NCBI GenBank assembly: GCA_964515475.1
Contig: CAZEVD010000001.1
Span: forward strand, 156,125 to 220,124
DNA length: 64,000 nt
Reading direction: 5' to 3'
Source: an uncultured Eubacteriales bacterium
Lineage (GTDB): Bacteria > Bacillota > Clostridia > TANB77 > UBA1234
Shown here piece by piece: positions 8,861-36,162 of the stretch. Positions within the stretch are counted from its first letter, which is position 1; every line of letters begins with the position of its first letter. The notes beneath the pieces were generated by a model. The model searched no databases, had not been told where the DNA came from, and saw only the letters and a program-made list of their open reading frames with translations. The position numbers were made by a program, and so were the translations under genes.

Positions 8861-8871
8861 TAAATAAAAAG

Positions 8872-8925
8872 CCCCGTAAGGATCGGCATTATATCTTGAC
8901 CGAGATACGGGGTTTTGTGTATTTT
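8872..8925 (+). terminator. Rho-independent terminator after mutS2
   Basis: ccccgtaagg..tacgggg hairpin + T-run. Confidence 0.7.
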
Positions 8926-8942
8926 GTAGGCATTAATTTTTA

Positions 8943-12138: not shown

Positions 12139-12243
12139 TTATGACCTCCAGCTTAGATGCAAGTTGGAGGTTTTATATTATTGTTTTGTTTTATATACAA
12201 AAGTGATAATATTTATATAAGATTTATTATTTGTGGAGGATAA

Positions 12244-13482: not shown

Positions 13483-13539
13483 TTGTAATTATTATGAATA
13501 ATTAGTTGTAATTTTAGAAGAATAGCAAAGGAGATTTGT

Positions 13540-14676: not shown

Positions 14677-14845
14677 AAATAATATTAATAAAAAAAACGA
14701 GCACATTTTTGTGAAGTTGTAAACTGAAAGTAGACGCCAAAAGTGTCTGCTCGCTTTTTTATGGTTGTTTTATTAAAAGTTTTACTTTTTAGTTGACTAT
14801 GATATAATTTCGATGTGTAAGTATTAGTCGAAGGGGGAATATTTA

Positions 14846-22000: not shown

Positions 22001-22960
22001 GTGAACAACCTAAAGATATTCGCATGTAACTCAGCAGAAGAGTTTGCCGAAAAAGTTTGTAAAGAACTTGGCGTCGAACTTGGCAAAAAAGAAGCTTTTA
22101 AATTCAAAAATGATAACACATTCGTGAAAATTCTGGAGACTGTCAGAGATGACGATGTCTTTGTAATCCAAACAACAAAACCGCCTGTAGACGAACGCAT
22201 AATGGAACTTTTGATCACGGTTGATGCTTTGAGAAGAGCTTCGCCTCGCAGAATCACAGTTGTTGTACCGTATTATCCTTATTCAAGATCGGATAAGAAG
22301 GATCAGCCTCGCGTGCCTATTACTGCAAAACTTGTCGCTGACATGATTGTGACTGCGGGTGCAGACAGGGTGTTGACTTGCGATTTGCACAATCCGGCCA
22401 TCCAAGGTTATCTCGACATTCCTTCAGATCAGCTTAAGGCAAAAGACATATTTGTTGAATACTTCAAACCTATCGCAGAAGCTGGCAATGTTACTGTTGT
22501 TGCAACGGATGCTGGTAGCACAAAGAAGGCATATAAGTATGCTGGTGCGCTTAACGCACAAATGGCTATGCTTGACAAGCGTAGAGACGGAAACGATGAC
22601 AGAGCAATCGCTTCTCACGTTATCGGTAATGTCGAAGGCAGAACATGCTTGATTTTTGATGACGAAGTTGATACTGCCGGTTCCTTGGTAGAAACTATCA
22701 ATGCGCTTAAAAAACACGGCGCAGCCGATATCTATGCAGCGTGCACTCACGCTGTACTTTCTGGTCCTGCTATTGAAAGGATTCAGGCTGCTGACTTCAA
22801 AGAGTTGGTAGTTACAAATACGATTCCTTTGACTGAAGAAAAACAAATCGACAAAATCAAAGTTTTGGATATTGCTCCGCTGTTTGGCAGAGCTATCAGA
22901 AAGATCCACGACGGCGAAGGCGTTGGTGAGTTGTTCGAAGACAAAAAAATGGAATTTTAA
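22001..22960 (+). CDS. prs: Ribose-phosphate pyrophosphokinase (PRPP synthetase), GTG start; GC-elevated copy
   Basis: PRPP synthetase N-terminal and PRTase motifs; RBS aaaggggga. Confidence 0.9.
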   Translation: MNNLKIFACNSAEEFAEKVCKELGVELGKKEAFKFKNDNTFVKILETVRDDDVFVIQTTKPPVDERIMELLITVDALRRASPRRITVVVPYYPYSRSDKKDQPRVPITAKLVADMIVTAGADRVLTCDLHNPAIQGYLDIPSDQLKAKDIFVEYFKPIAEAGNVTVVATDAGSTKKAYKYAGALNAQMAMLDKRRDGNDDRAIASHVIGNVEGRTCLIFDDEVDTAGSLVETINALKKHGAADIYAACTHAVLSGPAIERIQAADFKELVVTNTIPLTEEKQIDKIKVLDIAPLFGRAIRKIHDGEGVGELFEDKKMEF

Positions 22961-22989
22961 TTTTTGACGTAAACAAATTGGCAAATGTT

Positions 22990-23045
22990 AAATAAAGAGG
23001 TATGAATGATTGACTAGAGCAATCATTTGTACCTCTTTATTTTTA
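22990..23045 (+). terminator. Long hairpin terminator after prs
   Basis: aaagaggtatgaatgattg..caatcatttgtacctcttt + T-rich tail. Confidence 0.55.
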
Positions 23046-23208
23046 TTTCATAGGAAAGTAACACAAAAATAAAATTATTATGTTATTTAAATACTTTCCG
23101 TATGAAACAACAAAAGCACCTTATTAAGTTGCCGAAGGCAACATGAGAAAATTGAAAATCTTTTGATTTTCTAATTTTCTCTTTTGTTATATAAAATATA
23201 AGAAAAAA

Positions 23209-23240
23209 CTTGATTTTTGCCATGCTGAATGGTAAAATTA
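23209..23240 (+). promoter_or_regulatory. Sigma-A promoter TTGATT-17-TGgTAAAAT for rpsB-tsf, ~120-nt leader
   Basis: Hexamers read directly. Confidence 0.5.
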
Positions 23241-23362
23241 AGCGGTGCGTAAGCACAAATCCACATATAATATTAATCAAATAGCCTAGTGCCAATGATT
23301 GGTGGCTTTTTGGTGATGAGATATTATAGAGGAAATAAAACAAAAAATAGGAGGAAATTAAA

Positions 23363-24091
23363 ATGTCAGTAGTTGCAATGAAACAATTATTGGAAGCTGG
23401 TGTTCACTTTGGACATCAAACAAGAAGATGGGATCCAAGAATGGCTCCATATATCTTCACACAAAGAAATGGTATTTATATCATTGATTTACAAAAAACA
23501 ACAAAGAAAATTGATGAGGCTTATGATGTATTAAAGAGCATTATCGATGAAGGTAAAACAGTTATCTTCGTTGGTACAAAGAAACAAGCTCAAGAATGCG
23601 TTAAAGAAGCTGCAGAAAAATGTGGAATGTACTATGTTAACCAAAGATGGCTAGGTGGTATGTTAACAAACTTCGATACTATCAAAACAAGAATTGATAG
23701 ATTAAAAGAATTAGAAAAAATGGAAAATGATGGTACATTTGAAGTTTTACCTAAAAAAGAAGTTATTTTATTAAAGAAAGAAATGTCTAAATTAGAAGCT
23801 AACTTAGGCGGAATCAAAGAAATGAACGAAGTTCCAGGAGCTATGTTCGTTGTTGATCCTAAGAAAGAAAGAATTGCTATTTTAGAAGCTAGAAAATTAG
23901 GAATCCCTGTAATTGGTTTAGTTGATACAAACTGTAACCCAGAAGATGTTGATTACGTTATCCCTGGTAACGATGATGCTATCAGAGCTATCAAATTAAT
24001 CGTTGAAGCTATGGCTGATGCTGTAATCGAATCAAAACAAGGTGAAGCTCCTGCAAGAGCTGAAGAATCAGAAGAAATGGTTCAAGAATAA
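23363..24091 (+). CDS. rpsB: 30S ribosomal protein S2
   Basis: [32 protein letters not shown]. Confidence 0.95.
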
Positions 24092-24125
24092 TAGAAAATT
24101 TATATTATCAAGGGAGGATACTAGA

Positions 24126-24773
24126 ATGATATCTGCAGAACAAGTTAAAGAACTTAGAGAAATGACAGGTGCTGGTATGATGGAATGCAAAAAAGTACTT
24201 GTAGAAACTGATGGAGACATGGAAAAAGCAACAGAACTTCTTAGAGAAAGAGGAGTTGTTAAAGCTGCTAAAAAAGCAGGAAGAATTGCTGCTGAAGGTT
24301 TAGTTGAAAGCTATATTCATGGTGATGGAAGAATTGGTGTATTAGTTGAAGTTAACATTGAAACAGACTTCGCTGCTAAAAACCCAGAATTCAGAGAATT
24401 CGTTAAAGATATCGCTATGCAAATTGCTGCTGCAAAACCAGAATATGTAAAAAGAGAAGATGTACCAGCTGACGTATTAGAAAAAGAAAAAGAAATTATG
24501 AAAAACCAAGCTATTAACGAAGGTAAACCAGAAGCTGTAGCTGAAAAAATCGTTGCTGGTAAAATTGATAAATATTATGCAGATGTTTGCTTGTTAGAAC
24601 AAGATTTCGTTAAAGATCCTGATAAAACAGTTCAACAAGTTTTAACAGAAAAAATCTCAAGCATTGGTGAAAACATCACAATCAGAAGATTCGTAAGATT
24701 CGAAAGAGGAGAAGGTTTAGCTAAGAGAGAAGAAAACTTTGCTGAAGAAGTTATGAAACAAATTAATGGTTAA
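24126..24773 (+). CDS. tsf: Elongation factor Ts (start 24126; the track ORF from 24042 is an upstream in-frame extension)
   Basis: [25 protein letters not shown]; RBS agggagga. Confidence 0.9.
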
Positions 24774-24790
24774 TTAGAAAGTTTTTTAGG

Positions 24791-24837
24791 GCGGATTTAA
24801 ATGACGTTTGGTTGTTTAAATCCGTTCTTTTTTTATC
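24791..24837 (+). terminator. Rho-independent terminator after tsf
   Basis: cggatttaaa..tttaaatccg hairpin + T8. Confidence 0.7.
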
Positions 24838-24986
24838 TGATTTTGACATCTTCTAATATCTTCCAAATTAGCTTTTGCAAATTTTTATTTTATTAGAAAA
24901 TAACGCAATTATATGTACTTTTTTTGGCTGTTATGTGATAAAATATCTCTAGTTAAAATGCGTATTTATCATAGGAGGGAATTGTT

Positions 24987-26846
24987 TTGGCAAAATACAA
25001 AAGTAATGCAAAAGAGAGAAGAATATTAGCTTCAAAAGAATTTATAAGCAAAGCTGCAAAAATTCTTTTGTGTGCTTTTTGTGTTCAGTTTATTTTTTAT
25101 TTAATTTTGATTAATATTGTACCGCTTAGTTATTCAGATGCAGAAGGAAATTCTCATATAAGTGGATTGTATGTTGAGAATTGGCATAATTATAAAGGCA
25201 GTGGAGTTAATGTACATAAAGAAGGTAACGGTATTAAATTTATATATTGGTACAACATGATATTGTTAATTGCCAACTTGTTACTTTGTATGTATTACAT
25301 TGTTAATATCTTTATGGAAGAAAATCAAAGATATCCTGGCAAAGCTATAAAAATGTTCTTTAAAGAACATAAAGGTTTGTTATGGTTATTTGTATTTATG
25401 ACATGGGCATTTTTAAGTTCGGTAGGTGCTTATGATAAATTTAGATCTTTTATTGGCTGTTATAATCTAAGAGATGGTTATTTTTCTTTTATGTTTTATG
25501 GTTCAATGTTAGTAAACATGTTGTTCTTAGGTCTTGCGGGATTTGATAGCGAAGATAAAACAAAGAAAGATCCTAGAAAATTAATTATAGATTTACTTTT
25601 AATTACTGCAACTATTGTTGCAATTATTACAACAATGAATTATAGCGTGTTAAATTCTTATGAAATCGATCCTAATACTGAAGAAAAAGTATATATACTT
25701 GATTATATAACTTCTGGACTAAAAGTAGAACCAGTTGTATATAGAAGTACAGTTACATCTTCTGTATTTAATAATAGTAATCATTATGGATATTATTTGG
25801 CAATTACGGTTGTAGTAGCAGCATGTATGTTTATAAAGGACGAAGATTTCAAGAGAAAAGCATTATATTTTATCAGCTTTTGCGCGATGACATATGTATT
25901 AGTTATTAACGATACTTTTGGAGCTTTCTTAGGAGTAATGCTTGCTTTGATATTTATGCTTATTCAAACATTAATATCAAGAAAAAATTGGATAGAAGCA
26001 TTAATCGTTGCAATTGCATTTGTTTCAATTATTGCAAATGTAGAAAATCCTGATGGTGAAGTTATTATTGCAAAAGATTTTGAATATATCGGAAATAGCA
26101 TAAAAGCAATTTTAAATTCGACACCTGAAGAAGTTATTAGTGGAGATGAAGAAATAGAACCAAAAATAGATTTAGAACAATTATATTTTAAATCTGGTGA
26201 TGAAATAATGCGTGGATATTTATCTGGAGAGATTGTTGACGGTAATAAATTGTCTGGTGAAATTATTTCTGGCGAAGTTGTTTCTGGTGAAATTGTTTCA
26301 GGTGAATTTATTCCAAATGAAACACCAACTAATAATACAACTAAGAGTGAAACAGGAATTGAAGATGCTGGCGATGCTGGTTCTGGTAGATGGAAATTAT
26401 GGGTTGTCGGTATGCAAATTGCTTTTGAAGGAGCAAAAGATACAAGCGATGATGATCTTGCTACTGGTAGAGCGTACGGTTCACCACTATTTGGTGTTGG
26501 TCTTGAAAATATGTTATATGCGTATAATGCCAAAGGTGTAAATGAAGGTAGATCACATAATTTAATTGTTCAACTTGCAGGAACGTTAGGAATTCCAGCA
26601 CCAGTATTTTATGTTTTAGCAATGGCATTTATTTTCTTTGCTGGTTTAAAAACTATTAAAACGTGGGATATGTATATGTATACAGGTATGGCTGTAATGA
26701 TTTCATATTTATTCACTTCACTTACAGGAAATTCTGGATTCTATACATCTGGTTATTTCTACATTTTTGTTGGATTAGTTGTTTTAGAATTAATGAAACA
26801 AAAGAAAATGAAAAAAGAATTAGTAAATGGTAATAATAAAAAGTAA
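24987..26846 (+). CDS. Wzy_C (O-antigen ligase / O-oligosaccharyltransferase) family polytopic membrane protein with large extracytoplasmic loop carrying SGE(I/V) tandem repeats
   Basis: Wzy_C-like blocks (NNSNHYGYYLAI, RSHNLIVQLAGTLGI), >10 TM; 15-nt tandem repeats tctggtgaaattgtt at ~26220-26300. Confidence 0.6.
   Translation: MAKYKSNAKERRILASKEFISKAAKILLCAFCVQFIFYLILINIVPLSYSDAEGNSHISGLYVENWHNYKGSGVNVHKEGNGIKFIYWYNMILLIANLLLCMYYIVNIFMEENQRYPGKAIKMFFKEHKGLLWLFVFMTWAFLSSVGAYDKFRSFIGCYNLRDGYFSFMFYGSMLVNMLFLGLAGFDSEDKTKKDPRKLIIDLLLITATIVAIITTMNYSVLNSYEIDPNTEEKVYILDYITSGLKVEPVVYRSTVTSSVFNNSNHYGYYLAITVVVAACMFIKDEDFKRKALYFISFCAMTYVLVINDTFGAFLGVMLALIFMLIQTLISRKNWIEALIVAIAFVSIIANVENPDGEVIIAKDFEYIGNSIKAILNSTPEEVISGDEEIEPKIDLEQLYFKSGDEIMRGYLSGEIVDGNKLSGEIISGEVVSGEIVSGEFIPNETPTNNTTKSETGIEDAGDAGSGRWKLWVVGMQIAFEGAKDTSDDDLATGRAYGSPLFGVGLENMLYAYNAKGVNEGRSHNLIVQLAGTLGIPAPVFYVLAMAFIFFAGLKTIKTWDMYMYTGMAVMISYLFTSLTGNSGFYTSGYFYIFVGLVVLELMKQKKMKKELVNGNNKK
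26212..26301 (+). repeat. In-frame tandem 15-bp repeats encoding (L)SGEI(I/V) x5-6 inside Wzy_C gene
   Basis: tctggagagattgtt / tctggtgaaattatt / tctggcgaagttgtt / tctggtgaaattgtt / tcaggtgaattt. Confidence 0.7.
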
Positions 26847-26865
26847 AATTGGAAGGAAAGAAAAA

Positions 26866-28707
26866 ATGAGCTTTATATCAAAAATTGAAAAGTTACCTAC
26901 AAATTTAAAAACTTTTATTCTTTACGTTATTGACGCTTTAGCGGTATTAATGAGTTTTTATATTGTGATGGCGCTTGAAGGAATGCCTTTTTCTTTAGCA
27001 GATCATCCTACACGTAATACAATTTTTCCGATAATGCTTATGTATATAATTGCATTTAGTCTTATAGGTGTTTATAAAGGAATTATTAAATATACAAGTG
27101 CGAAAGATTATATCTTTATAGGAGGTACATCTTTAGTTATTTCGATGGTATTTTGTACAGCGAAACAATATGTTGTACCTCGCACACTTGAAGCTAATGT
27201 TATAATCTTAGCGGCTGTGTTTGCTGCAATTATAAGTATTTCTTTTAGAGTTTTTGTGAGAATGTTTTGGTATGCGGTTGCTGGTATTGGTAATAACAAA
27301 CAACGTTTGTTAATTATTGGTGCGGGACAGTCTACATCGCAAGTTATAAAAACTCTTCAAACAACGCTCGCTGCACAGTACCATATTGTTGGTATTATCG
27401 ATGATGATCCTTCGAAGCAAAAAAGAATGATGTTTGGCATAAAAATTTTAGGTACTCGTGATGATATAGCACGTATTTGTGAAGAAGAGAATATTGATGT
27501 TATTTTCTTCTCGATTGATAACATTAAACCTAAAGAAAAAAATAAGATTTTAAAAATTTGTGATAAAACAAATGCAAAAGTAAAAATTGTTTTACCATTA
27601 GCACAAATTATTTCGGGAAAAGATTTTAATGATGCAATAAGGGATGTTGAAGTTGAAGATTTGCTTGGTCGTGAACCTATCTCTTTAAACAATGGAAAGA
27701 TTACAGAATATTTAACTGGTAAAACAGTTCTAGTTACAGGTGCTGGTGGTTCAATTGGTTCAGAACTTTGTAGACAAATTATTAAATTTAAACCTAAAAA
27801 AATTGTAATGGTTGATATATATGAAAATACTTTATATGAAACTGAAATGGAGTTAAGACAAACGAATAAGAATGCTCCGATTATTACGATTATTGCAAGT
27901 GTTCGTGATAGAGAAAGAATGGAAATGCTTTTTGAGAAATATAGACCTCAAGTTGTTTTCCATGCTGCGGCTCACAAGCATGTTCCTTTAATGGAAACAA
28001 GCCCACTTGAAGCTATTAAAAATAACGTGTTTGGAACATATAATGTTGTTGAATGTAGCGATAAATATGGAGTGGAAAAATTCACATTTATTTCAACAGA
28101 TAAAGCAGTAAACCCTACTAGTATAATGGGTGCAACAAAGAGAATTTGTGAAATGATTATTCAAGCTAAAAACAGAACAAGTAAAACTGTTTTTGCTGCA
28201 GTTAGATTTGGTAATGTACTTGGAAGTCACGGTTCGGTTATTCCATTGTTTAAAAAACAAATTGCTGCTGGTGGACCGGTTACAGTTACTCATAAAGAGA
28301 TTACAAGATATTTTATGCTTATTCCAGAAGCGGTAGGTTTGATTTTACAATCTGCGACTTTTGCAAATGGTGGAGAAATATTTGTTTTAGATATGGGTGA
28401 ACCTGTTAAGATTTATGATTTGGCAACAACACTTATTAAAATGTCTGGAAAGAATATTCCTATTGAAGTTGTAGGTTTAAGAAAAGGTGAGAAGTTATAC
28501 GAAGAATTATTAATGGCTGAAGAAGGTTTAATAAAAACCTTACATGACAAAATTATGATTTCTCAAATTAAAGCTCCAACAGATGATGAAATGAAAATAA
28601 TGATGGACAAGTTACGTGATATTATCAAAGACAATAATGTTACTAGAAAAGAAGTAAAAGAATTAGTAAAAGAGGTTGTACCTACGTTTATTGATTTAGA
28701 AGACTAA
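26866..28707 (+). CDS. Membrane-anchored UDP-N-acetylglucosamine 4,6-dehydratase (PglF/CapD/WbpM family)
   Basis: N-terminal TMs; Rossmann VLVTGAGGSIGSELCRQI; CapD-like C-terminal domain; start 26866 with RBS ggaaggaaag. Confidence 0.85.
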   Translation: MSFISKIEKLPTNLKTFILYVIDALAVLMSFYIVMALEGMPFSLADHPTRNTIFPIMLMYIIAFSLIGVYKGIIKYTSAKDYIFIGGTSLVISMVFCTAKQYVVPRTLEANVIILAAVFAAIISISFRVFVRMFWYAVAGIGNNKQRLLIIGAGQSTSQVIKTLQTTLAAQYHIVGIIDDDPSKQKRMMFGIKILGTRDDIARICEEENIDVIFFSIDNIKPKEKNKILKICDKTNAKVKIVLPLAQIISGKDFNDAIRDVEVEDLLGREPISLNNGKITEYLTGKTVLVTGAGGSIGSELCRQIIKFKPKKIVMVDIYENTLYETEMELRQTNKNAPIITIIASVRDRERMEMLFEKYRPQVVFHAAAHKHVPLMETSPLEAIKNNVFGTYNVVECSDKYGVEKFTFISTDKAVNPTSIMGATKRICEMIIQAKNRTSKTVFAAVRFGNVLGSHGSVIPLFKKQIAAGGPVTVTHKEITRYFMLIPEAVGLILQSATFANGGEIFVLDMGEPVKIYDLATTLIKMSGKNIPIEVVGLRKGEKLYEELLMAEEGLIKTLHDKIMISQIKAPTDDEMKIMMDKLRDIIKDNNVTRKEVKELVKEVVPTFIDLED

Positions 28708-28727
28708 CATAAGAAGGAGAGGATTTA

Positions 28728-29858
28728 ATGAATAAAGTAGTATTGGCAACTCCACATATGTCAAAAGAAGGATATGAACAAGAATATGTTAAAGAAGCTT
28801 TTGATACAAATTGGATTGCTCCACTTGGAGAAAACGTAAACAAATTTGAAGAAGGTATTGCAAATTATGTTGGTGTAAAATCAGCAGCCGCTTTGTCTTC
28901 TGGAAGTGCTGCACTTCACTTAGCACTTAAACGTGCTGGTGTGCAGAGAAACGATATCGTTTTGTGCCAATCGCTTACTTTTTCAGCTAGTGCAAATCCT
29001 ATTTTATACGAAGGGGCAATACCTGTTTTTATTGATAGCGAAAAAGAAAGTTGGAACATGGATCCTAAAGCTTTAAAGATTGCTTTAGAAAAATATCCAA
29101 ATGCAAAGGCGGTAATTGCTGTAAATTTATATGGCAATCCTGCAAAGCTTGATGAAATTTTAGAGATTTGTAACAAACATAATGTTACATTAATAGAAGA
29201 TGCGGCAGAAAGTTTGGGTTCAATTTATAAAGGAAAACAAACAGGAACTTTTGGTAAATATAATGCATTTTCATTCAATGGAAATAAGATTATTACAACA
29301 AGCGGTGGCGGAATGTTAGTTTCAGATGATGAAGAAGGAATTAATAAAGTTAGATTTTGGTCAACACAATCTAAAGAAAACGTTCCGTATTATCTGCATA
29401 AAGAAATTGGTTACAATTATAGAATGAGTAATATTTGTGCGGGAATTGGAAGAGGCCAATTAAAAGTTCTTGACGAAAGAATTGAAAAGAAAAACAAAAT
29501 ATATGAAAAGTATAAAGAAGCTCTAGAAAAAGATGGAGCATTTACAATGATTCCTGTTCCTGAAAATTCTAGACCTAATCACTGGTTATCTGTTGCAATT
29601 ATAAATGACGAAAAAATTACACCAACTGAGTTGATGGAAGCTTTGAAAGAAAAAGATATTGAAACAAGAAGAGTTTGGAATCCAATGCATTTGCAACCAA
29701 TATTTGAAAACAATGATTATATCAAAGCTTCTGAAGAAGATGTATCGAAATGGTTATTTGAAAGAGGAATTTGTTTACCAAGTGATACAAAAATGACAGA
29801 TGAAGAACAAGAATATGCAATAGATGAAATTTTAAAAGTAGTAAATAAGACAAAATAA
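28728..29858 (+). CDS. DegT/DnrJ/EryC1/StrS-family PLP aminotransferase (PglE-like, UDP-4-amino-4,6-dideoxy sugar)
   Basis: Family motifs throughout; pyridoxal Lys region FSFNGNKIITTSGGGM. Confidence 0.85.
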   Translation: MNKVVLATPHMSKEGYEQEYVKEAFDTNWIAPLGENVNKFEEGIANYVGVKSAAALSSGSAALHLALKRAGVQRNDIVLCQSLTFSASANPILYEGAIPVFIDSEKESWNMDPKALKIALEKYPNAKAVIAVNLYGNPAKLDEILEICNKHNVTLIEDAAESLGSIYKGKQTGTFGKYNAFSFNGNKIITTSGGGMLVSDDEEGINKVRFWSTQSKENVPYYLHKEIGYNYRMSNICAGIGRGQLKVLDERIEKKNKIYEKYKEALEKDGAFTMIPVPENSRPNHWLSVAIINDEKITPTELMEALKEKDIETRRVWNPMHLQPIFENNDYIKASEEDVSKWLFERGICLPSDTKMTDEEQEYAIDEILKVVNKTK

Positions 29859-29874
29859 AAGGAGCGCTATTTTA

Positions 29875-30486
29875 GTGTATAAAAATTTTATAAAAAGATT
29901 CTTAGACATACTTTTTAGTTTGATTTTACTAATAGTACTATCTCCAATTTTATTGGTGTTAATGATTATTGTAAGAATAAAACTTGGTTCGCCAATTTTC
30001 TTTAAACAAGAAAGACCAGGCAAAGATGGAAAAATATTTACGTTATATAAATTTAGAACGATGACTGATAAGAAAAATGAAAAGGGCGAATTACTTCCAG
30101 ATTCAGAAAGACTTACTTCATTCGGAAAGTTGCTTAGAAGTACAAGTTTAGACGAACTTCCAGAATTAATTAATATTCTAAAAGGCGATATGAGTTTTAT
30201 AGGACCAAGACCTTTATTAGTGGAATATTTGGAACTTTATAATGAAGAACAAAAACATCGTCATGATGTTAGACCTGGTCTTACTGGTTTGGCACAGGTT
30301 GAAGGAAGAAATTTATTATCGTGGGAAGAACGTTTTAAATTAGATGTGAAGTATGTTGAAAATGTAGGTTTTATTAATGATATAAAAATTATATTAAAAA
30401 CTATAGGTGTGGTTTTTAAAAGAGAAGGTGTTTCTTCGGCAACTTCTAGCACTATGGAAAAATTTACAGGGACAAAAGAAAAATAA
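29875..30486 (+). CDS. Undecaprenyl-phosphate sugar phosphotransferase (PglC-like small bacterial sugar transferase), GTG start
   Basis: KRFLDILFSLILL..PIFFKQERPGKDGKIFTLYKFRTM canonical block. Confidence 0.85.
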   Translation: MYKNFIKRFLDILFSLILLIVLSPILLVLMIIVRIKLGSPIFFKQERPGKDGKIFTLYKFRTMTDKKNEKGELLPDSERLTSFGKLLRSTSLDELPELINILKGDMSFIGPRPLLVEYLELYNEEQKHRHDVRPGLTGLAQVEGRNLLSWEERFKLDVKYVENVGFINDIKIILKTIGVVFKREGVSSATSSTMEKFTGTKEK

Positions 30487-30509
30487 TTATATTGGAGGGT
30501 GTTATACAT

Positions 30510-31631
30510 ATGAAAAAGGTTTTGTTTGTTGCTTCAGTAACAAGACATATTACAACATTTCATGTTCCATACTTAAAATATTTTAAAGATAATGGCTATG
30601 AGGTTCATGTTGCAAGTTATGGAGAAAGACCAATTCCTCATTGTGATAAACATTTTAATTTAGAATTTCAAAGATCACCTTTTAAGGCAAGTAATATAAA
30701 GGCGTATAAAGAGCTTAAAAAAATTATAAATGAAGAAAAATATGAAATTATACATTGTCACACACCTGTTGCAAGTGTTTTGACAAGACTTGCTGCAAAG
30801 AAAACAAGAAAAGAAAATGGTACGCGTGTGATTTATACGGCTCATGGTTTTCATTTTTACAAAGGTGCTCCAAAGAAAAATTGGATGATTTATTATCCAA
30901 TTGAAAAATATTTATCAAAGTATACAGATACTTTAATAACAATTAATTATGAAGACTATGAGATTGCAAAAGAAAAATTTCATGCAAAACAAATTGAACA
31001 TGTTCATGGCGTAGGAATAGATGAGAGAAAATTCACAGGTATGATATCAGATGATGAGATAAAAGCTTTTAAAGCAGGATTATCTTTAAAGCCATTAGAC
31101 TATGTAATCACATATGTTGCGGAGTTAAATAATAATAAAAATCAGATGATGATTATTCGAGCTATGAAAGAAGTTGTTCGTAAGCATCGCAGCGTAAAAG
31201 TTCTTTTAGTTGGTGATGGGGTATACGAAGAAAAACTTCGTGCTGAAATTAAAAAGAATCTGTTGCAAAACAATGTTTTGTTATTGGGATATAGAACAGA
31301 TATACCGATGCTTCTTAGAATATCTGATTTATACGTTGCAACGAGTAAAAGAGAAGGTTTGCCTGTAAATATTTTAGAAGCCATTTGTGCAGGACTTCCT
31401 CTTTTAGTTACAGACTCAAGAGGGCAAAGAGAACTTGTTGAAGATGGTGTAAACGGATATTTAGTTAGAAATAATGACTATGAAGATTTGGTACAAAAAA
31501 TAAATAATGTTTATTCAGATTTCAAAATTAGAAATCATTTTAGACAAAATTCTAGAGCAAATCTTTCTAAGTATCTTATAGAAAATGTTTTTGAAGAAAT
31601 GAAAAAGATTTACAACATAGAAGGAGTATAA
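30510..31631 (+). CDS. Glycosyltransferase family 4 (GT-B)
   Basis: GT4 C-terminal E..E motif region (REGLPVNILEAICAGLPLLVTD); start 30510. Confidence 0.8.
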   Translation: MKKVLFVASVTRHITTFHVPYLKYFKDNGYEVHVASYGERPIPHCDKHFNLEFQRSPFKASNIKAYKELKKIINEEKYEIIHCHTPVASVLTRLAAKKTRKENGTRVIYTAHGFHFYKGAPKKNWMIYYPIEKYLSKYTDTLITINYEDYEIAKEKFHAKQIEHVHGVGIDERKFTGMISDDEIKAFKAGLSLKPLDYVITYVAELNNNKNQMMIIRAMKEVVRKHRSVKVLLVGDGVYEEKLRAEIKKNLLQNNVLLLGYRTDIPMLLRISDLYVATSKREGLPVNILEAICAGLPLLVTDSRGQRELVEDGVNGYLVRNNDYEDLVQKINNVYSDFKIRNHFRQNSRANLSKYLIENVFEEMKKIYNIEGV

Positions 31632-31634
31632 TCT

Positions 31635-32252
31635 ATGAAAGATGTAATTATTATAGGTGCAGGCGGTCACGCTAAAGTTATTGCTGATATTGTTATAAGA
31701 AGTAATGATAACTTAATAGGTTTTTTAGATGACAGTAAACCATTTGGAACAAAAGTACTTGGCGATTATGAAGTTTTAGGATCAACAAATTTAATTGAAT
31801 CGATAAAAGGTGAAAATAAATTTTTCATAATTGCTATAGGAGATAATTTTATACGAAAAGAATTTTATAAAAAATATGATGTGAATTATTATACCGCAAT
31901 ACATCCTACAGCAATAATTGGAACTGATGTTGAGATTGCTGAAGGAACTTGCGTAATGCCAAATGCTTGTATTAATGCAAATTCAAAAATTGGAAAGTGT
32001 TGTATCATTAATTCTGGAGCTTTGGTAGAACATGATTGCGTGCTTGCTGATTTTGTTCATATATCCCCAACAGCAACTCTTTGTGGAACTGTTAAAATTG
32101 GAGAGCTGACTCAAATTGGAGCAAGAGCGACGGTGAGAAATAATGTAACAATTGGAGAAGAAATTCTTATTGGAATGGGAGCAACAGTTGTTAAAGACAT
32201 ATTAGATAAAGGTACTTATGTGGGAACACCTGCAAAATTAAAAGAAGACTAA
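31635..32252 (+). CDS. Hexapeptide-repeat sugar N/O-acetyltransferase (PglD/NeuD family)
   Basis: MKDVIIIGAGGHAKV Rossmann-like N-term + left-handed beta-helix repeats. Confidence 0.8.
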   Translation: MKDVIIIGAGGHAKVIADIVIRSNDNLIGFLDDSKPFGTKVLGDYEVLGSTNLIESIKGENKFFIIAIGDNFIRKEFYKKYDVNYYTAIHPTAIIGTDVEIAEGTCVMPNACINANSKIGKCCIINSGALVEHDCVLADFVHISPTATLCGTVKIGELTQIGARATVRNNVTIGEEILIGMGATVVKDILDKGTYVGTPAKLKED

Positions 32253-32263
32253 GGAGGATTTTT

Positions 32264-33112
32264 TTGAAGACAACTTTAAAATTATTAAGAGTAAAGCATT
32301 ATATAAAAAACATTTTAATATTTATACCTTTTATTTTTGGAACAGTATTAAATTTTGCTAGAGTAGGAAATATGTTTATCGCTTTCTTTGCATTCTCTTT
32401 TATGGCTTCTGCTATATATATAATAAATGATTTAAAAGATATCGAGAAAGATAAACTTCATCCAAAAAAATGTTTACGTCCTATTGCGAGTGGAAAAGTT
32501 TCAAAGAAAACTGCAATAATAATTGCGATTTTAATGTTTTTTTGTTCAATAGTTTTAAATTTTTTTGCAGCAAATACATGGCAATCATATATGTGGCTTT
32601 CAATATATTTTGTTGTTAATTTGTTGTATAGTTTAAAGCTAAAAAATGTTCCTGTAATAGACATTGCTATTTTAGTTGCGTTTTATATTATTAGAGTATA
32701 TTACGGTGCAGCTGTTGCCGAGGTTCCCGTAAGTAGTTGGCTTTATTTAACTATTATGTCTGGAGCATTATTCTTAGCTTTTAGTAAACGTAGAAATGAA
32801 CTTAAGATAAAAGGTGCAGAAGCAAGAAACGTATTAAGATTTTATACTATTGATTATCTAGATAAATTTATGTATATGAGTTTAGCTGTAACAATTGCTT
32901 TTTATTCATTGTGGACAGTCGAACATACAAATAAATTATATCCTTATACAATTCCTTTTGTATTGTTGATTTGTATAAGATATTGCTTAGTAGTTGAAAC
33001 AACAGATAACGATGATCCTGTTGAAATTGTAACAAAGGATAAAATGCTAATTTTATTTGAGGTATTATTTCTTTTGTTTGGTGTGGCTATTACAATATTT
33101 AATATTTTTTAA
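32264..33112 (+). CDS. UbiA-family prenyl-phosphate 5-phosphoribosyltransferase-like protein (homolog of mycobacterial DPPR synthase Rv3806c), TTG start
   Basis: KHYIKNILIF and NDLKDIEKDKLHPKKCLRPIASGKVS closely parallel the DPPR synthase motif NDxxDxxxDxxHPxKxxRPIA. Confidence 0.65.
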   Translation: MKTTLKLLRVKHYIKNILIFIPFIFGTVLNFARVGNMFIAFFAFSFMASAIYIINDLKDIEKDKLHPKKCLRPIASGKVSKKTAIIIAILMFFCSIVLNFFAANTWQSYMWLSIYFVVNLLYSLKLKNVPVIDIAILVAFYIIRVYYGAAVAEVPVSSWLYLTIMSGALFLAFSKRRNELKIKGAEARNVLRFYTIDYLDKFMYMSLAVTIAFYSLWTVEHTNKLYPYTIPFVLLICIRYCLVVETTDNDDPVEIVTKDKMLILFEVLFLLFGVAITIFNIF

Positions 33113-33128
33113 TAGGAGATAAAAATAA

Positions 33129-33695
33129 ATGAATGCATATGATTTTGATGGAACAATATATGACGGTGATTCGGGGATGGATTTTGTTAAGTATGCTTTA
33201 TCCAAAAGACCGTTTTTGGTATTATTTCATTTGTTAAAATGTACAAAACCCGCGATAGAATATAAGCTTGGTAAGATTGATTTCAAAACAGCCAAAAGTA
33301 AAGTTTTTTCTTTTGTTAGTAAAATAGATAATTTGGAAGAAATGACAAAATCTTTTGCAGAAAAAAATAAACATAAAATAAAAATGTATTATCCAGATAA
33401 TAAAAAAGAAGATGACATAGTAATAAGTGCATCTTTAGATTTTTATTTATTACCACTATGCAAAGCAATTGGTTTAAGCAATGTAATGTGTACTAAATAT
33501 GATGTGAAAACAGGGAGTATTGTTGGTGAGAATTGTAAAGGCGAAGAAAAGGTAAAGCGTTTTGAAGAAGTTTATGGAAAAGATGCAATAATTGAAAATG
33601 CATATGGAGACAGTAAAGGTGATATTCAATTGCTTAATAGAGCGCAAAAAGGATTTATGATAGTAAAACAAGAAGTTATAGAATATAAAGGTTAA
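33129..33695 (+). CDS. HAD-superfamily hydrolase (putative phosphatase)
   Basis: N-terminal DxDGT (YDFDGTIYDGD). Confidence 0.55.
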   Translation: MNAYDFDGTIYDGDSGMDFVKYALSKRPFLVLFHLLKCTKPAIEYKLGKIDFKTAKSKVFSFVSKIDNLEEMTKSFAEKNKHKIKMYYPDNKKEDDIVISASLDFYLLPLCKAIGLSNVMCTKYDVKTGSIVGENCKGEEKVKRFEEVYGKDAIIENAYGDSKGDIQLLNRAQKGFMIVKQEVIEYKG

Positions 33696-33708
33696 GGGGG
33701 AGAATAGT

Positions 33709-34749
33709 GTGGAAAAAGTTTTTATAACAGGTGGAAGCGGATTTCTGGGAATAAATCTAATAAGGATGCTTCTTGAAAAAGGATATGAAGTTGTTTCTTT
33801 GGATTTGTTACCTTTTGAATATGAAGATTGTAAGGATAAAATTAAATGGGTTGTTGGAGATATTAGAAATAAGGAAACGGTTGATGAGTGTACGAAAGGT
33901 GTGGACTATGTAGTGCATTGTGCTGCAGCATTACCTCTTTATAAAAAAGAAGATATTTTTTCAACAGATATAGATGGTAGCAGAAATGTAGTGCAAAGTG
34001 CATATGAACACAAAGTAAAAAGATTTATTCAAATTTCTTCAACTGCTGTTTACGGCATTCCTGATCATCATCCTTTAGTTGAAGAAGATAAGTTAGATGG
34101 TGTTGGACCATATGGTGTCGCTAAAATCGAAGCTGAAAAAGTTTGTGCTGAATATAGAGAAAAAGGTTTACCAACAGCAATAATTAGACCTAAATCATTT
34201 GTTGGACCTGAAAGATTAGGAGTTTTTGCATTGTTTTATGAATGGGCAAAAGATGGTCACGGTTTTCCAATGATAGGTAGCGGAAATAACAGATATCAAC
34301 TTTTAGATGTTGAAGATTTATGCGATATGATTTTAACTTGCATGACAATCGATGAAGAAAAAATGAATGATACATTTAATATTGGAGCTAAAGAATTCAC
34401 AACAATGAAAGAAGATTATCAAGTTGTTTTGGATAAAGCGGGATTTGGAAAGAAAATTCATGGTTTTCCGGCAGCACCTGCTATTTGGGGTCTAAGATTT
34501 TTAGAATTGTTGCATCTTTCGCCACTTTACAAATGGGTATATGAAACTGCTTCAAAAGATTCGTTTGTATCTATTGAAAAAGCTGAGAATAAATTAGGAT
34601 ATAAACCAAAATATTCCAATAAAGACGCTCTTTTAAGAAATTATGATTGGTATTTAAAAAATTATGAGAAATTCGAAGGGCAAACAGGTGTAAATCACAG
34701 AGTTCCATGGAAGCAAGGTGCTCTTAAAATAATAAAAATGTTTTATTAA
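33709..34749 (+). CDS. NAD-dependent epimerase/dehydratase (extended SDR)
   Basis: ITGGSGFLGINLIRML; YxxxK region (YGVAK). Confidence 0.8.
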   Translation: MEKVFITGGSGFLGINLIRMLLEKGYEVVSLDLLPFEYEDCKDKIKWVVGDIRNKETVDECTKGVDYVVHCAAALPLYKKEDIFSTDIDGSRNVVQSAYEHKVKRFIQISSTAVYGIPDHHPLVEEDKLDGVGPYGVAKIEAEKVCAEYREKGLPTAIIRPKSFVGPERLGVFALFYEWAKDGHGFPMIGSGNNRYQLLDVEDLCDMILTCMTIDEEKMNDTFNIGAKEFTTMKEDYQVVLDKAGFGKKIHGFPAAPAIWGLRFLELLHLSPLYKWVYETASKDSFVSIEKAENKLGYKPKYSNKDALLRNYDWYLKNYEKFEGQTGVNHRVPWKQGALKIIKMFY

Positions 34750-34799
34750 TGCGTATTTTATGATATAAATATATTGAAAAAATTTAAGGAGGTTTTTTT

Positions 34800-35510
34800 A
34801 TGCCAAAGGCAAAGTACAAGAGAGTTCTACTAAAACTTAGTGGTGAAGCAATGTCTGGACCAAATGGATTTGGAATAGATGCTGACACACTTGGAAACAT
34901 TTGTGATTACATTAAGAAAATTGTAGATATGGGTGTTGAAGTTGCTATTGTTGTAGGTGGTGGAAATTTTTGGAGAGGAAGACAAGCTCATAAAATGGAA
35001 AGAACTACAGCAGATTACATGGGAATGCTTGCGACTATAATGAACGGTCAAGCATTACAAGATGCTTTGGAATATAGAGGTTTGGATACAAGACTTCAAA
35101 CATCTATTGAAATGAGTCAAATTGCTGAACCTTACATAAGAAGAAAAGCTGTTAGACACTTAGAAAAAGGAAGAGTTGTAATATTTTCTGGTGGTACAGG
35201 AAATCCATTTTTCTCGACAGATACTTGTGCTGCGCTAAGAGCAAGTGAGATAAATGCCGAAATTATATTGTTTGGAAAAACTATTGATGGTGTTTATGAT
35301 TCAGATCCAAAAGAAAATCCAAATGCGAAGAAATATGATTCAATATCTTATACAGAAATATTGAAAAACAACTTAAAAGTAATTGATTCTACTGCAGCAT
35401 CTTTATGTAGAGATAATAAAATGCCAACTATGATTTTTGCTTTGAAGAATGCGGAAGACTTAATTAAAGCTGTTTCTGGTGAAAACATCGGAACAATAAT
35501 AAGTGAATAA
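34800..35510 (+). CDS. pyrH: UMP kinase
   Basis: [12 protein letters not shown] and amino-acid kinase fold motifs. Confidence 0.9.
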
Positions 35511-35546
35511 GGCGACAATGTCGTTATTTTGAAAGGGGAATTTTAT

Positions 35547-36092
35547 ATGTATTCACACATAGAAGAAAAAATGAAAAAAACTTTAGGAGCTTTAGATAAT
35601 CAATTAGCAGAAATTAGAGCTGGTCGTGCTAATCCAAAAATATTGGATAGAATAATGGTTAGTTATTATGGTGTTCCAACACCAATTAATCAAGTTGCTA
35701 ATATCATGGTTCCAGAAGCTAGAATGATTACTATTCAACCATGGGATGGTAGTTTATTAAAAGAAATCGAAAAAGAAATTCAAAAAGCTGATTTAGGAAT
35801 AAATCCAACAAATGATGGAAAATGCATTAGACTTGTTTTCCCAGAATTAACAGAAGAAAGAAGAAAATCTTTGGTTAAAGATATTAAAAAGATTTCTGAA
35901 GATAATAAGATTGCTATTAGAAGTATCAGAAGAGACGGTATTGAAGAATTTAAAGCAAAACAAAAAGCTAGTGAAATTACAGAGGATGATTTAAGAGACG
36001 CTGAAGATAAAATTCAAAAATTAACAGACAAGTATGTTGATAAAATCGATGAAGCTTGTGCTGCTAAAGAAAAAGAAATTATGACTGTATAA
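35547..36092 (+). CDS. frr: Ribosome recycling factor (start 35547; the track ORF from 35529 is an upstream extension)
   Basis: Collinear with B. subtilis RRF (AEIRAGRANPKILD, VPEARMITIQPWD). Confidence 0.9.
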   Translation: MYSHIEEKMKKTLGALDNQLAEIRAGRANPKILDRIMVSYYGVPTPINQVANIMVPEARMITIQPWDGSLLKEIEKEIQKADLGINPTNDGKCIRLVFPELTEERRKSLVKDIKKISEDNKIAIRSIRRDGIEEFKAKQKASEITEDDLRDAEDKIQKLTDKYVDKIDEACAAKEKEIMTV

Positions 36093-36162
36093 ATTTGTTT
36101 TGATGGGGTGAGCAGAATTATCTTCTCACCCTTGCTATAATATTGGAGAGGGGACTAATAAT

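Follow-up and report, generated by a model that had tools for sequence, protein, structure and literature searches.

What is made by the glycan genes that stand between tsf and pyrH in an uncultured Eubacteriales bacterium, and onto what is the product transferred? The genes lie within a window of 64,000 nucleotides, which is the whole stretch of DNA analysed here, and a sequence-only reading of it had proposed a module for O-linked protein glycosylation.

The operon between tsf and pyrH

The set consists of nine co-directional genes (24987-34749, plus strand) that sit inside a housekeeping operon, with the tsf terminator on one side and pyrH on the other; together they form one operon conserved across a lineage. 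The six genes named in the sequence-only reading are all present on the plus strand at the positions it gave. The terminator it reported after tsf is a strong intrinsic one (24788-24828, plus strand; 18-bp stem, 5-nt loop and T-run, read directly from the sequence) and separates rpsB-tsf from the glycan operon. The gene run had been taken to stop at 32252, but UbiA, HAD and SDR genes, joined by gaps of 11-16 bp, extend it to 34749. The operon is flanked by tsf and pyrH-frr-uppS, and no terminator precedes pyrH (34800), a position that suggests vegetative, constitutive expression.

The locus occupies the same site, next to uppS-cdsA, in about 20 uncultured gut Clostridia species. Glycosyltransferase content varies at this conserved site (GT4 alone, GT4 with two GT2, two GT4, or only PglF), several relatives lack PglD, and in distant clades a ligase-family protein is paired with just a small phosphoglycosyl transferase (PGT). 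No 10-14-TM Wzx-like protein is encoded in the window, and no Wzx, Wzz or LCP genes were found, whether in the window itself or in the 10 kb on either side of the locus in relatives. This absence had been advanced as a case against a classical polysaccharide locus. The absence itself stands; the argument is weak because a flippase is required on any reading, which means that one or more essential genes must be unlinked.

Predicted synthesis of a lipid-linked glycan

The product of the gene at 26866-28707 is a PglF-like membrane-anchored UDP-GlcNAc 4,6-dehydratase (613 aa counted from the start used by gene callers; Polysacc_synt_2, 3e-119), whose best PDB match is the C. jejuni WlaL/PglF protein (5BJU, 1e-90). 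It is followed by a PglE-like PLP aminotransferase acting at C4 (28728-29858; DegT, 9e-101), which matches C. jejuni PglE (1O61/4ZTC, 1e-102) and reaches 383.7 bits, below the cutoff of 420, with the LegC-family model TIGR04181. The small monotopic PglC-like PGT (29875-30486; Bac_transf, 8e-66) aligns over its full length with PglC structures 8E37/8G1N (5.5e-79). GT4 (30510-31631; Glycos_transf_1, Glyco_trans_4_2) has PglA among its top matches (8DVZ, full-length alignment, 2e-18), together with BshA (2.7e-20). The sixth protein is an N-acetyltransferase of the PglD/NeuD family (31635-32252; TIGR03570, 227.8 bits, above the cutoff of 160.8) with PDB matches to VioB, PerB, Neisseria 4M98 and C. 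jejuni PglD (4e-37 to 2e-28). Profile searches thus uphold all five family assignments made earlier, and the closest solved relatives of four of the genes are Campylobacter PglF, PglE, PglC and PglA.

The specificity of small PGTs for UDP-diNAcBac is marked by a GLLLP motif, an aromatic box and a salt bridge (PMC10186338). The relevant residues here are G71-x-L-L-P75, D93-E94, E117, Y118, Y122, W150, F154, K196 and F197: four of the five GLLLP positions are kept, and both the aromatic box and the E117-K196 salt-bridge pair are complete. Specificity for UDP-diNAcBac is predicted on this basis.

By homology, the PglF-, PglE- and PglD-like enzymes would convert UDP-GlcNAc to UDP-diNAcBac, the PGT would place diNAcBac-phosphate onto undecaprenyl phosphate, and GT4 probably adds one further sugar, the second, to Und-PP-diNAcBac. 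The PDB relatives and the PGT signature strongly support the enzyme set that had been proposed, one for a short Und-PP-diNAcBac-based glycan. Predicted synthesis of Und-PP-diNAcBac-sugar is well supported, and we regard a lipid-linked diNAcBac glycan as very probably the product of the locus.

The three genes beyond 32252 code for a UbiA-family protein resembling polyprenyl-phosphate phosphoribosyltransferase (DPPR synthase) (32264-33112; NF008978, 199.9 bits, below the cutoff of 207), a HAD-IB phosphatase (33129-33695; PF12710, 5.8e-17) and an extended SDR of the epimerase/dehydratase family (33709-34749; Epimerase, 2.4e-42). The UbiA protein matches PDB 8J8J (1.1e-33) and carries NDLKDIEKD, corresponding to NDxxDxxxD; its gene is accessory, being present among the relatives' loci only in L001, L005, L006, L008, L012 and L022. 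A PDB search found no relative of the HAD phosphatase, the gene for which is retained in nearly all relatives' clusters in the synteny comparison. The SDR matches generic SDRs only and is very highly conserved (82-94% identity across species). In this species UbiA and HAD, possibly with SDR, probably supply a polyprenyl-phospho-pentofuranose donor for extra decoration by a separate enzyme.

The membrane protein as a candidate glycan ligase

The first gene of the operon (24987-26846) starts with TTG at 24987, 7 nt downstream of an AGGAGGG Shine-Dalgarno sequence, and codes for a 619-aa, 12-TM candidate glycan ligase of the WaaL/PglL (Wzy_C) superfamily. Its earlier assignment to Wzy_C holds through homologues and fold, but not for the protein itself, which stays below the Pfam threshold (E=0.035; 14.3 bits, where 31.7 are required). 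Each of the 18 aligned homologues matches Wzy_C at E<=1 (best 2.9e-18), and the AF2 model (pTM 0.74) has WaaL 7TPG as its top and sole significant PDB match (E 1.2e-5, probability 1.0). FNNSNHYGY, INDTFG, GSGRW, GxGLEN, EGRSHN and GNSGFYTSGYFYIFVG are invariant in the 18 sequences of the family, as are R468, aligning with WaaL R265, and H524-N525, aligning with the WaaL HN pair. The predicted topology has the N-terminus inside, with a K+R density of 0.27 in cytoplasmic loops versus 0.07 in outside ones, and puts the conserved Arg...His-Asn motif outside the cell in a large loop. Membership in the WaaL/PglL superfamily is supported by the homologues, the fold and this motif.

The narrower claim of a PglL/PilO-type O-oligosaccharyltransferase is supported as to superfamily but not established as to class: the protein has neither PglL_A nor Wzy_C_2, and NCBIfam gave only single sub-threshold matches in the family pointing in different directions (TfpM, PEP_O_lig_1, repeat-unit polymerase). 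PglL_A and Wzy_C_2 flag the PglL and PglS classes of O-oligosaccharyltransferases (PMC12645811), while Wzy_C alone does not separate such enzymes from the lipid ligase WaaL or the Gram-positive LTA ligase TacL (PMC5727136). Wzy_C alone also fails to tell them from some polymerases. O-oligosaccharyltransferases do have precedent in Gram-positives, namely WsaB and WsfB in Bacillales (PMC2943079).

A Wzy-type polymerase would join Und-PP-linked diNAcBac-sugar units into a wall polysaccharide, such as a secondary cell-wall polymer for SLH proteins, with the Wzx, LCP and chain-length genes located elsewhere. SLH-domain proteins are indeed encoded at 14846-16690 and in L059, so some wall polymer is needed, and one of the 18 family members weakly matches the repeat-unit polymerase model TIGR04370 (6.6e-4). 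Pfam Wzy_C takes in some polymerases as well, B. subtilis TuaE being a putative example. The same diNAcBac route, through EpsC/N/M/L, serves exopolysaccharide synthesis in B. subtilis (PMC10653937). Against a polymerase stand the invariant Arg...His-Asn together with a sole significant fold match to a ligase (FtsW reaches only E 0.5), the pairing with PGT only in some clades, and the finding that, of more than 20 loci, none has Wzx, Wzz or LCP linked to it. Furthermore, glycosyltransferase content, and hence the non-reducing end that a polymerase must recognise, changes while the protein stays orthologous. We therefore judge the polymerase to be unlikely and, because the same family stays at the site as glycosyltransferase content changes, consider the protein probably a ligase.

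A ligase could also act on lipid. In the manner of TacL, it would transfer an Und-PP-linked diNAcBac glycan, which may be short or have been polymerised elsewhere, to a membrane glycolipid; the product would be a lipoglycan or type-IV-like lipoteichoic acid forming a core envelope component of the lineage, and SG[ED] linkers, described below, would be unrelated to it. TacL of S. pneumoniae is a Gram-positive Wzy_C protein, and the first sugar of its glycan is 2-acetamido-4-amino-2,4,6-trideoxyhexose (PMC5727136). The fold and motifs of our candidate equal those of WaaL, a ligase with a lipid acceptor, and the locus is housekeeping-like, occupying one site in all those species. Since several relatives lack PglD, the 4-amine of their first sugar may stay free or be acylated differently. 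However, TacL has about 400 aa and no long acidic loop, whereas members of the ligase family run to 530-800 aa and have additional beta-elements on the outside. Linked genes for a polymerase, a TacF-type flippase or a glycolipid synthase are absent, just one glycosyltransferase follows the PGT, and lipid transfer leaves unaccounted for the SG[ED] motif that recurs in the loop of the enzyme even between deep clades. Lipid transfer is, in our judgement, a somewhat improbable alternative.

The SG[ED] motif and candidate acceptors

A stretch of Ser-Gly-Glu/Asp (SG[ED]) repeats occupies residues 385-442 of the candidate ligase (26139-26312, plus strand), just N-terminal to the GSGRW helix. The repeat had been placed in an extracytoplasmic loop, and the predicted topology agrees, locating it in a 185-residue outside loop. 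It includes a 15-bp tandem repeat at 26253-26306 (TCTGGTGAAATTGTT, 3.6 copies) within a wider run of seven SG[ED] motifs at residues 385-440; the stretch has pLDDT <50, and its Ser codons are both TCN and AGY. Across 40 ligase loops SG[ED] occurs 56 times versus 4.4+-2.0 in shuffles, other orderings of the three residues occurring at most 8 times.

Similar repeats had been noticed in two other envelope proteins, and both were seen again. One is a NodB/PdaA-like polysaccharide deacetylase lipoprotein (59595-60563, plus strand; Polysacc_deac_1, 7e-36), with SG[ED] motifs in the tether behind its lipobox. The tethers of 47 dereplicated orthologues hold 106 SG[ED] versus 4.1+-1.9 in shuffles, and 106 of their 138 Gly residues fall within the motif; the catalytic domains have only 2 in 11,247 aa. 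The other is membrane-anchored and belongs to the DUF3048 family; the window ends within its gene and includes just the N-terminus (63814-64000, plus strand), in which an SGD/SGE run follows the TM segment and the DNA contains a 15-bp repeat at 63961-63989; its L062 orthologue is a DUF3048 protein with the same kind of run. Both are putative acceptors.

SG[ED] clusters were found 12 times in 1,599 ORFs: seven are ligase loops, including clades 27-35% identical, and four follow a signal peptide, lipobox or TM anchor. With an over-representation of about 13- to 25-fold in the ligase outside loop and lipoprotein tethers, Ser-Gly-Glu/Asp is a real short motif selected in outside linkers, which is a new result. 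The proposal that these repeats are glycan acceptors is strengthened statistically by the enrichment and its recurrence in deep clades, and is still circumstantial.

One ligase clade (P0028-P0037) has no SG[ED] in the loop, and P0034 of this clade appears, from contigs of equal length, to share a contig with the motif-bearing NodB protein P0097. SG[ED] is linked to the ligase by association only; alternatively, the motif could be customary in the acidic outside linkers of this lineage, or a different system could target it.

The NodB gene lies directly upstream of yabP-yqfD, with the spoIIIA operon some kb further upstream, and one database source labels an orthologue 'peptidoglycan-N-acetylmuramic acid deacetylase'. 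A sporulation-linked surface glycan would fit these neighbours, with forespore or spore-envelope components decorated and the NodB and DUF3048 proteins taking part in the process. The expression suggested by the operon's position speaks against it, and it specifies acceptors while offering no different mechanism; we find it highly improbable.

Glycosylation of membrane-proximal regions and of the transferase itself has parallels. Mycobacterial lipoprotein tethers are O-mannosylated, and PglB and STT3, both oligosaccharyltransferases, carry glycans themselves. That protein accepts the glycan here is a tentative proposal. An unlinked flippase would bring the Und-PP-disaccharide to the external face of the membrane, where conserved Arg residues of the ligase would bind the pyrophosphate and, by means of the conserved His in its big outside loop, the glycan would pass en bloc to a hydroxyl group of the acceptor, most likely Ser of Ser-Gly-Glu/Asp in membrane-proximal linkers of exported proteins. 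If protein is the acceptor, the ligase would be an O-oligosaccharyltransferase bearing the motif in its own loop too. Transfer of a diNAcBac glycan to SG[ED] serines by such an enzyme is our best single reading of the whole, possible though short of probable.

The cluster between tsf and pyrH

Nine closely spaced genes lie on the + strand between tsf and pyrH (24987-34749). The sequence-only reading described a run of six (24987-32252); all six are present, but the run goes on, to nine genes in total. A strong intrinsic terminator with an 18-bp stem and a T-run is located directly after tsf (24788-24828, + strand). The first gene, coding for a 619-aa putative ligase (24987-26846), starts at TTG 24987 and is preceded by an AGGAGGG Shine-Dalgarno sequence. 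It is followed by genes coding for a PglF-like dehydratase (26866-28707), a PglE-like aminotransferase (28728-29858), a small PglC-like phosphoglycosyl transferase of 203 aa (PGT, 29875-30486), a GT4 (30510-31631), a PglD-like acetyltransferase (31635-32252), a UbiA protein (32264-33112), a HAD-IB phosphatase (33129-33695) and an extended SDR (33709-34749). No terminator was found between the cluster and pyrH (34800), behind which frr, uppS, cdsA and the gene of an M50-family (RseP-like) protease are located; the locus adjoins the undecaprenyl-diphosphate synthase gene. For a leader or regulatory RNA ahead of the cluster, Rfam gave no match in 22900-36500, and scores of a promoter scan were not above those of shuffles. 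The mechanically called tsf frame opens at GTG 24042 (24042-24773) and overlaps rpsB; since EF-Ts of relatives is 215 aa long, translation probably begins near 24126.

About 20 species-level MAGs share the order tsf-[ligase-PglF-PglE-PGT-GT4...HAD]-pyrH-frr-uppS; they carry Clostridia or Eubacteriales labels, and their sources are the guts of sheep, goat, deer, buffalo and humans. No cultured member of the lineage carrying the locus was among the data examined. Cluster enzymes are 63-94% identical across these ~20 species (PglF 63-86% and SDR 82-94% to the window), the ligase just 33-62%. The identity of the SDR equals that of rpsB, tsf and pyrH and is far above that of the other cluster genes. 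A recent horizontal island can be ruled out, as the GC content of the cluster (0.30-0.31) equals that of the flanks, and the site and gene order are kept in ~20 species. In one relative (locus L007) a gene coding for a 220-aa LRR_5 protein (8440-9102) sits between rpsB and tsf, so the conserved operon took other insertions within the lineage.

The core of the cluster is fixed, and the genes around it differ between loci. Several loci lack PglD, two of them with an ATP-grasp-like gene in its place, and the extra genes of some loci are a second GT4 or a pair of GT2. In a single locus (L013) the HAD domain is fused to the N-terminus of GT4. In a deeper clade, all that remains ahead of pyrH is the ligase together with PglF and an acyltransferase, and still more distant ligase homologues have only a small PGT alongside, flanked by the histidyl-tRNA synthetase gene on one side and another aminoacyl-tRNA synthetase gene on the other.

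Elsewhere in the window, positions 12001-16000 have a very low GC content (0.24-0.27) and a high GC skew (0.36-0.45), hold several short A-rich tandem repeats and code for two membrane proteins with no family or DUF3137 only (12244-13482 and 13540-14676). The 614-aa product of 14846-16690 has two SLH domains, a type I dockerin and a transglutaminase-like core, an unusual combination of wall anchoring with a cellulosome-type module. A similar SLH-transglutaminase protein is encoded upstream of the ligase in the relative's locus L059.

Predicted lipid-linked glycan and the accessory module

The bacillosamine-type assignments made from the sequence alone hold, as Pfam and NCBIfam agree on them and solved structures sharpen them. 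The top solved relative of the dehydratase is C. jejuni PglF/WlaL (5BJU, 1e-90), and the aminotransferase matches C. jejuni PglE (1O61/4ZTC) at about 1e-102. The PGT aligns over its full length with PglC (8E37/8G1N, 5.5e-79); the 267 bits of this alignment refer to the match to PglC 8E37 and not to the HMM of the PMC10186338 authors, for which the cutoff is 200 bits. GT4 aligns end to end with PglA (8DVZ, 2e-18), with BshA alongside. The acetyltransferase passes the NeuD/PglB/VioB model TIGR03570 (227.8 bits vs the cutoff of 160.8) and matches VioB, PerB, Neisseria 4M98 and PglD in the PDB. By homology, the cluster covers the three steps of a UDP-diNAcBac (bacillosamine-type sugar) pathway: the 4,6-dehydratase would be of the retaining, membrane-anchored kind, the aminotransferase would act at C4, and the N-acetyltransferase would be a left-handed beta-helix protein of the NeuD/PglB/VioB family.

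PGTs specific for UDP-diNAcBac are known to possess an aromatic box (Y118/Y122/W150/F154/F197), a GLLLP loop at 71-75, an E117-K196 pair and an extended C-terminus (Anderson et al., PMC10186338). The cluster PGT shares residue numbering with C. concisus PglC and has all five aromatics (Y118, Y122, W150, F154 and F197), the loop G71-E-L-L-P75 in place of GLLLP, D93-E94, E117, K196 and the extended C-terminus, by which it is predicted to be a UDP-diNAcBac-specific PGT of the PglC type. The prediction that the cluster makes Und-PP-diNAcBac plus one sugar is well supported by the enzyme homologies together with this signature.

Three PglD-less loci (L005, L006 and L022) code for PGTs which keep the aromatic box but have Q and P instead of the E117-K196 pair; this may be co-variation with an altered sugar. 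L015 and L023 are PglD-less too, yet their PGTs retain E and K. The genes judged by eye to be ATP-grasp-like (L013 6761-7576 and L014 9112-10080) are located near the expected place of PglD in these two PglD-less loci, which suggests that the 4-amino group of the first sugar could be acylated there with a non-acetate group.

The four-step route to Und-PP-diNAcBac, with a GT4 for the second sugar, is common to this locus and the pgl systems of Campylobacter (PglF/E/D/C/A) and Neisseria, and the best solved relatives of four cluster proteins are Campylobacter enzymes. The Neisseria system (PglD/C/B/A and PglL) has the same overall logic, its terminal enzyme also belonging to the Wzy_C superfamily. 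Unlike Campylobacter, the cluster has no PglB-type N-OTase, and unlike the pgl systems it has no linked flippase (PglK or PglF(Nm)), is located between tsf and pyrH and belongs to a low-GC, spore-forming Clostridia lineage.

The UbiA protein aligns over residues 5-271 with mycobacterial DPPR synthase (8J8J, 1.1e-33), carries the motif NDLKDIEKD (NDxxDxxxD) and scores 199.9 bits with NF008978, 7 bits short of the equivalog cutoff of 207. Together with the adjacent HAD phosphatase it plausibly leads to polyprenyl-P-ribofuranose, which the SDR could epimerise. We have found no solved relative of the HAD protein, and those of the SDR do not identify its substrate. The order of a UbiA protein, a phosphatase and an oxidoreductase resembles the decaprenyl-phosphoribose pathway (Rv3806c, a phosphatase and DprE1/E2), but here a soluble HAD-IB takes the place of PAP2, and one extended SDR that of DprE1/E2. 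The decaprenyl-phosphoribose route also serves D-Araf pilin glycosylation in P. aeruginosa. Literature searches for DPPR-synthase homologues in Firmicutes returned nothing relevant.

No more than six loci have the UbiA gene, while the HAD gene is kept almost everywhere, including loci without UbiA, and the SDR occurs without UbiA in L009, L011 and L016. A strict three-step DPA-like pathway is weakened by these occurrences and by the HAD protein having no solved relative. The Wzy_C protein is ruled out as the user of a polyprenyl-P-pentose donor, since it is present in every relative and UbiA in six loci only; no GT-C enzyme which could use such a donor is in view in the window or in the relatives' loci. 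We regard UbiA-HAD-SDR as an accessory decoration pathway with partly assigned steps.

The 619-aa protein, a divergent WaaL/PglL-superfamily member

By itself, the 619-aa protein has no family match in Pfam or NCBIfam. The earlier assignment to Wzy_C does not stand on its own Pfam score (14.3 bits, E 0.035 vs the gathering threshold of 31.7 for PF04932), but it does stand on homologues and fold. A database search has found 58 homologues, most of them with a precomputed PF04932 match, and Wzy_C is matched at E<=1 by all 18 aligned homologues (best 2.9e-18). The window protein misses the Pfam threshold because a long insert with Ser-Gly-Glu/Asp motifs (SG[ED]) splits the domain. A profile search against 1.84 billion representatives has yielded 3,255 relatives with E<=1e-3, of which 366 reach E<=1e-30; most of the distant ones are about 440 aa long and share the C-terminal catalytic module only, and SG[ED] loops are limited to long-loop subfamilies.

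FNNSNHYGY, INDTFG, GSGRW, GxGLEN and EGRSH are invariant in the alignment of 18 sequences, as is the striking C-terminal motif GNSGFYTSGYFYIFVG. R468, R522 and H524 are also invariant, and N525 is replaced by Ser in a few sequences. In a profile search of PDB sequences, R468 falls on R265 of C. metallidurans WaaL (7TPG) and H524-N525 on its His-Asn. Such Arg and His residues of WaaL, PglS and PglL are attributed to pyrophosphate binding and to the catalytic base (PMC12800693).

The AF2 model (pTM 0.74, mean pLDDT 68; the repeat-bearing loop below 50) has WaaL 7TPG_B as its sole significant Foldseek match in the PDB (E 1.2e-5, probability 1.00, target-normalised TM-score 0.50), the runner-up being FtsW with E 0.5. 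Hydropathy, model helices and the positive-inside rule concur on 12 TM segments with both termini inside. They place outside an acidic loop of 185 residues (352-536) which contains the Arg and His motifs. In contrast to Wzy_C (18/18), PglL_A (PF15864) and Wzy_C_2 (PF11846) are matched by 0/18 sequences, even at E<=1. PglL_A and/or Wzy_C_2 alongside Wzy_C mark the PglL/PglS class (PMC12645811, PMC3643930), so the family lacks the marker domains of that class. NCBIfam TfpM is matched by one of the 18 members (7.6e-8), which, like the SG[ED] enrichment described below, is indirect evidence for an O-OTase; the repeat-unit polymerase model TIGR04370 is matched, weakly, by one. The agreement of family-level evidence, modelled structure and predicted topology places the protein in the WaaL/PglL superfamily as a divergent member.

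Like WaaL 7TPG, the protein has 12 TM helices, the Arg and His-Asn residues and, between late TM helices, a big loop on the outside. It differs in having 14% identity and 200 additional residues with an acidic disordered insert, and the WaaL acceptor, lipid A-core, is not expected in an apparently monoderm spore-former. A Wzy_C/WaaL-like core and, as predicted here, en bloc transfer from Und-PP are common to proteobacterial PglL, PglS, TfpO and TfpM and to WsaB/WsfB, the S-layer O-OTases of Bacillales which demonstrate that this kind of enzyme exists in Gram-positives (PMC2943079). The size, about 600 aa, is that of PglL, and the candidate acceptors, like the Ser/Thr/Tyr acceptors of O-OTases, are in exposed low-complexity regions. 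Unlike Neisseria PglL, the protein has neither PglL_A nor Wzy_C_2, and unlike the O-OTases it lacks class-specific domains and TPR, has no adjacent pilin or S-layer target gene and has a putative sequon matching none described, which is also found in its own loop.

In the best-supported mechanism, UDP-diNAcBac would be made in the cytoplasm, diNAcBac would be placed onto Und-P, a single GT4 step would follow, an unlinked flippase would flip the lipid-linked glycan and the WaaL-like protein would then transfer it en bloc. A ligase is preferred over a polymerase because of the WaaL-like Arg...His-Asn architecture and fold, because the protein stays orthologous while distal sugars change, and because some clades pair it with a PGT alone. 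A Wzy polymerase making a wall polymer is possible, and would fit the presence of SLH proteins and the diNAcBac start of the B. subtilis biofilm exopolysaccharide (EpsC/EpsN/EpsM/EpsL/EpsD), which begins by the same sugar route (PMC10653937). Both that system and ours belong to Firmicutes and combine the UDP-diNAcBac route with a small PGT and a second GT4 step; unlike the present locus with its one GT and WaaL-like protein, the eps operon codes for numerous GTs along with a flippase and an EpsG-type polymerase. A polymerase would be expected to have a linked or co-varying Wzx and chain-length regulator, and to change along with the structure of the repeat unit; here the protein is orthologous throughout, and the GT content varies. 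The claim that the window codes for no Wzx-like protein proved correct, and no Wzx, Wzz/tyrosine-kinase or LCP genes were found in the window or within +-10 kb in the relatives' loci.

The SG[ED] motif and the candidate acceptor

The SGE repeat noticed earlier in the ligase loop is a 15-bp tandem repeat (26253-26306) inside a run of seven SG[ED] motifs (residues 385-440). The other two occurrences noticed earlier were found too, with three copies in the post-lipobox tether of the NodB lipoprotein (59595-60563) and five past the TM segment of a membrane-anchored DUF3048 protein (63814). The run is common to the four closest homologues of the ligase, one copy ("VGISGEE") is retained in a large clade, and independent expansions are seen in three other clades (P0027; P0052-54; L025). 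In 40 dereplicated ligase loops S-G-[ED] occurs 56 times vs 4.4+-2.0 in shuffles, each other order of the three residues at most 8 times, and 23 loops have at least one copy (4.1 expected). In 47 dereplicated NodB tethers, otherwise freely divergent, it occurs 106 times vs 4.1+-1.9 and accounts for 106 of the 138 glycines; NodB catalytic domains have 2 copies in 11,247 residues. These sequences are related, so the shuffle statistics overstate independence; the effect is still very large.

The NodB and ligase genes are about 25 kb apart. In L062 NodB is motif-less and the DUF3048 orthologue has four copies; in L063 both lack the motif. Scanning of 1,599 ORFs of the fetched loci has found 12 dense SG[ED] clusters: seven in ligase loops, four behind a lipobox, an anchor or a signal peptide, and one other. 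Serine codons of both the AGY and TCN types are used. The motif is therefore under selection at the protein level, lies outside the cytoplasm and goes with the ligase family.

Two proteins with the motif are encoded less than 10 kb from distant ligase homologues: a Christensenellaceae lipoprotein with an SGD run directly behind the lipobox Cys (L057, 1767-1943) and a signal-peptide protein of a Bacillota MAG with spaced SGE motifs (L024, near 14926). A Ruminococcus ORF (L039, - strand, near 5893) opens with tandem "PTMPQTSGERI" and has no upstream hydrophobic segment; it may have a mis-called start or belong to another kind of repeat protein.

The best single reading, to which we give a little less than an even chance, is that the acceptor would be protein Ser in SG[ED] linkers. 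It is based on the motif data, the PglL-like size of the ligase and the analogy with glycosylated lipoprotein tethers. Three points count against taking a protein acceptor for granted: a Wzy_C match does not tell O-OTases and lipid ligases apart (PMC12645811), the PglL/PglS marker domains are absent, and TacL, a Gram-positive Wzy_C enzyme, uses a glycolipid acceptor (PMC5727136). Ligation of the glycan to a glycolipid is a less likely alternative: TacL (RafX) of S. pneumoniae, an LTA ligase with a core envelope function, belongs to the same superfamily and handles a glycan that begins with 4-amino-trideoxy-HexNAc made by PglF/PglE-type enzymes (PMC5727136), which is compatible with the first sugar predicted here. 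TacL is only 397 aa long, as compared to 619 aa, it moves a polymerised teichoic acid chain, and its partner genes (TacF, polymerase and Lic) have no counterparts in the locus.

If the acceptor is protein, the full picture, which we put forward as possible but rather doubtful, would be a general O-glycosylation system hard-wired in the tsf / pyrH-frr-uppS operon. A divergent WaaL/PglL-superfamily enzyme would place a short diNAcBac glycan on Ser of Ser-Gly-(Glu/Asp), a minimal sequon of a new kind which would recur along the membrane-proximal tethers of anchored proteins and lipoproteins; the enzyme's own tandem copies by the active site might serve self-glycosylation or act as a pseudo-substrate.

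All cluster enzymes come from known families, and the Gram-positive O-OTases WsaB/WsfB are already known. What is new is the uncultured Clostridia lineage, the fixed place of the cluster within the tsf/pyrH-frr-uppS operon, a ligase subfamily which is divergent and has a long loop, the putative accessory phosphoribosyl module and an SG[ED] motif present both in the enzyme loop and in exported tethers. In the literature searched, we have found neither a clostridial system combining diNAcBac with Wzy_C nor an SGE/SGD sequon.

Should the acceptor be protein, strictly anaerobic Gram-positive gut bacteria would gain a general lipid-carrier-dependent O-glycosylation. Its simple, sequence-predictable sequon would make glycoproteomes of uncultured Clostridia predictable from metagenomes, and glyco-engineering with bacillosamine-first glycans would obtain a new combination of O-OTase and sequon. 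Under the rival explanations, too, the locus is the mark of an envelope glycoconjugate conserved in a lineage that is widespread in the gut of ruminants and humans, and the SG[ED] motif itself is a clear, testable sign that exported proteins undergo an unknown modification or interaction.
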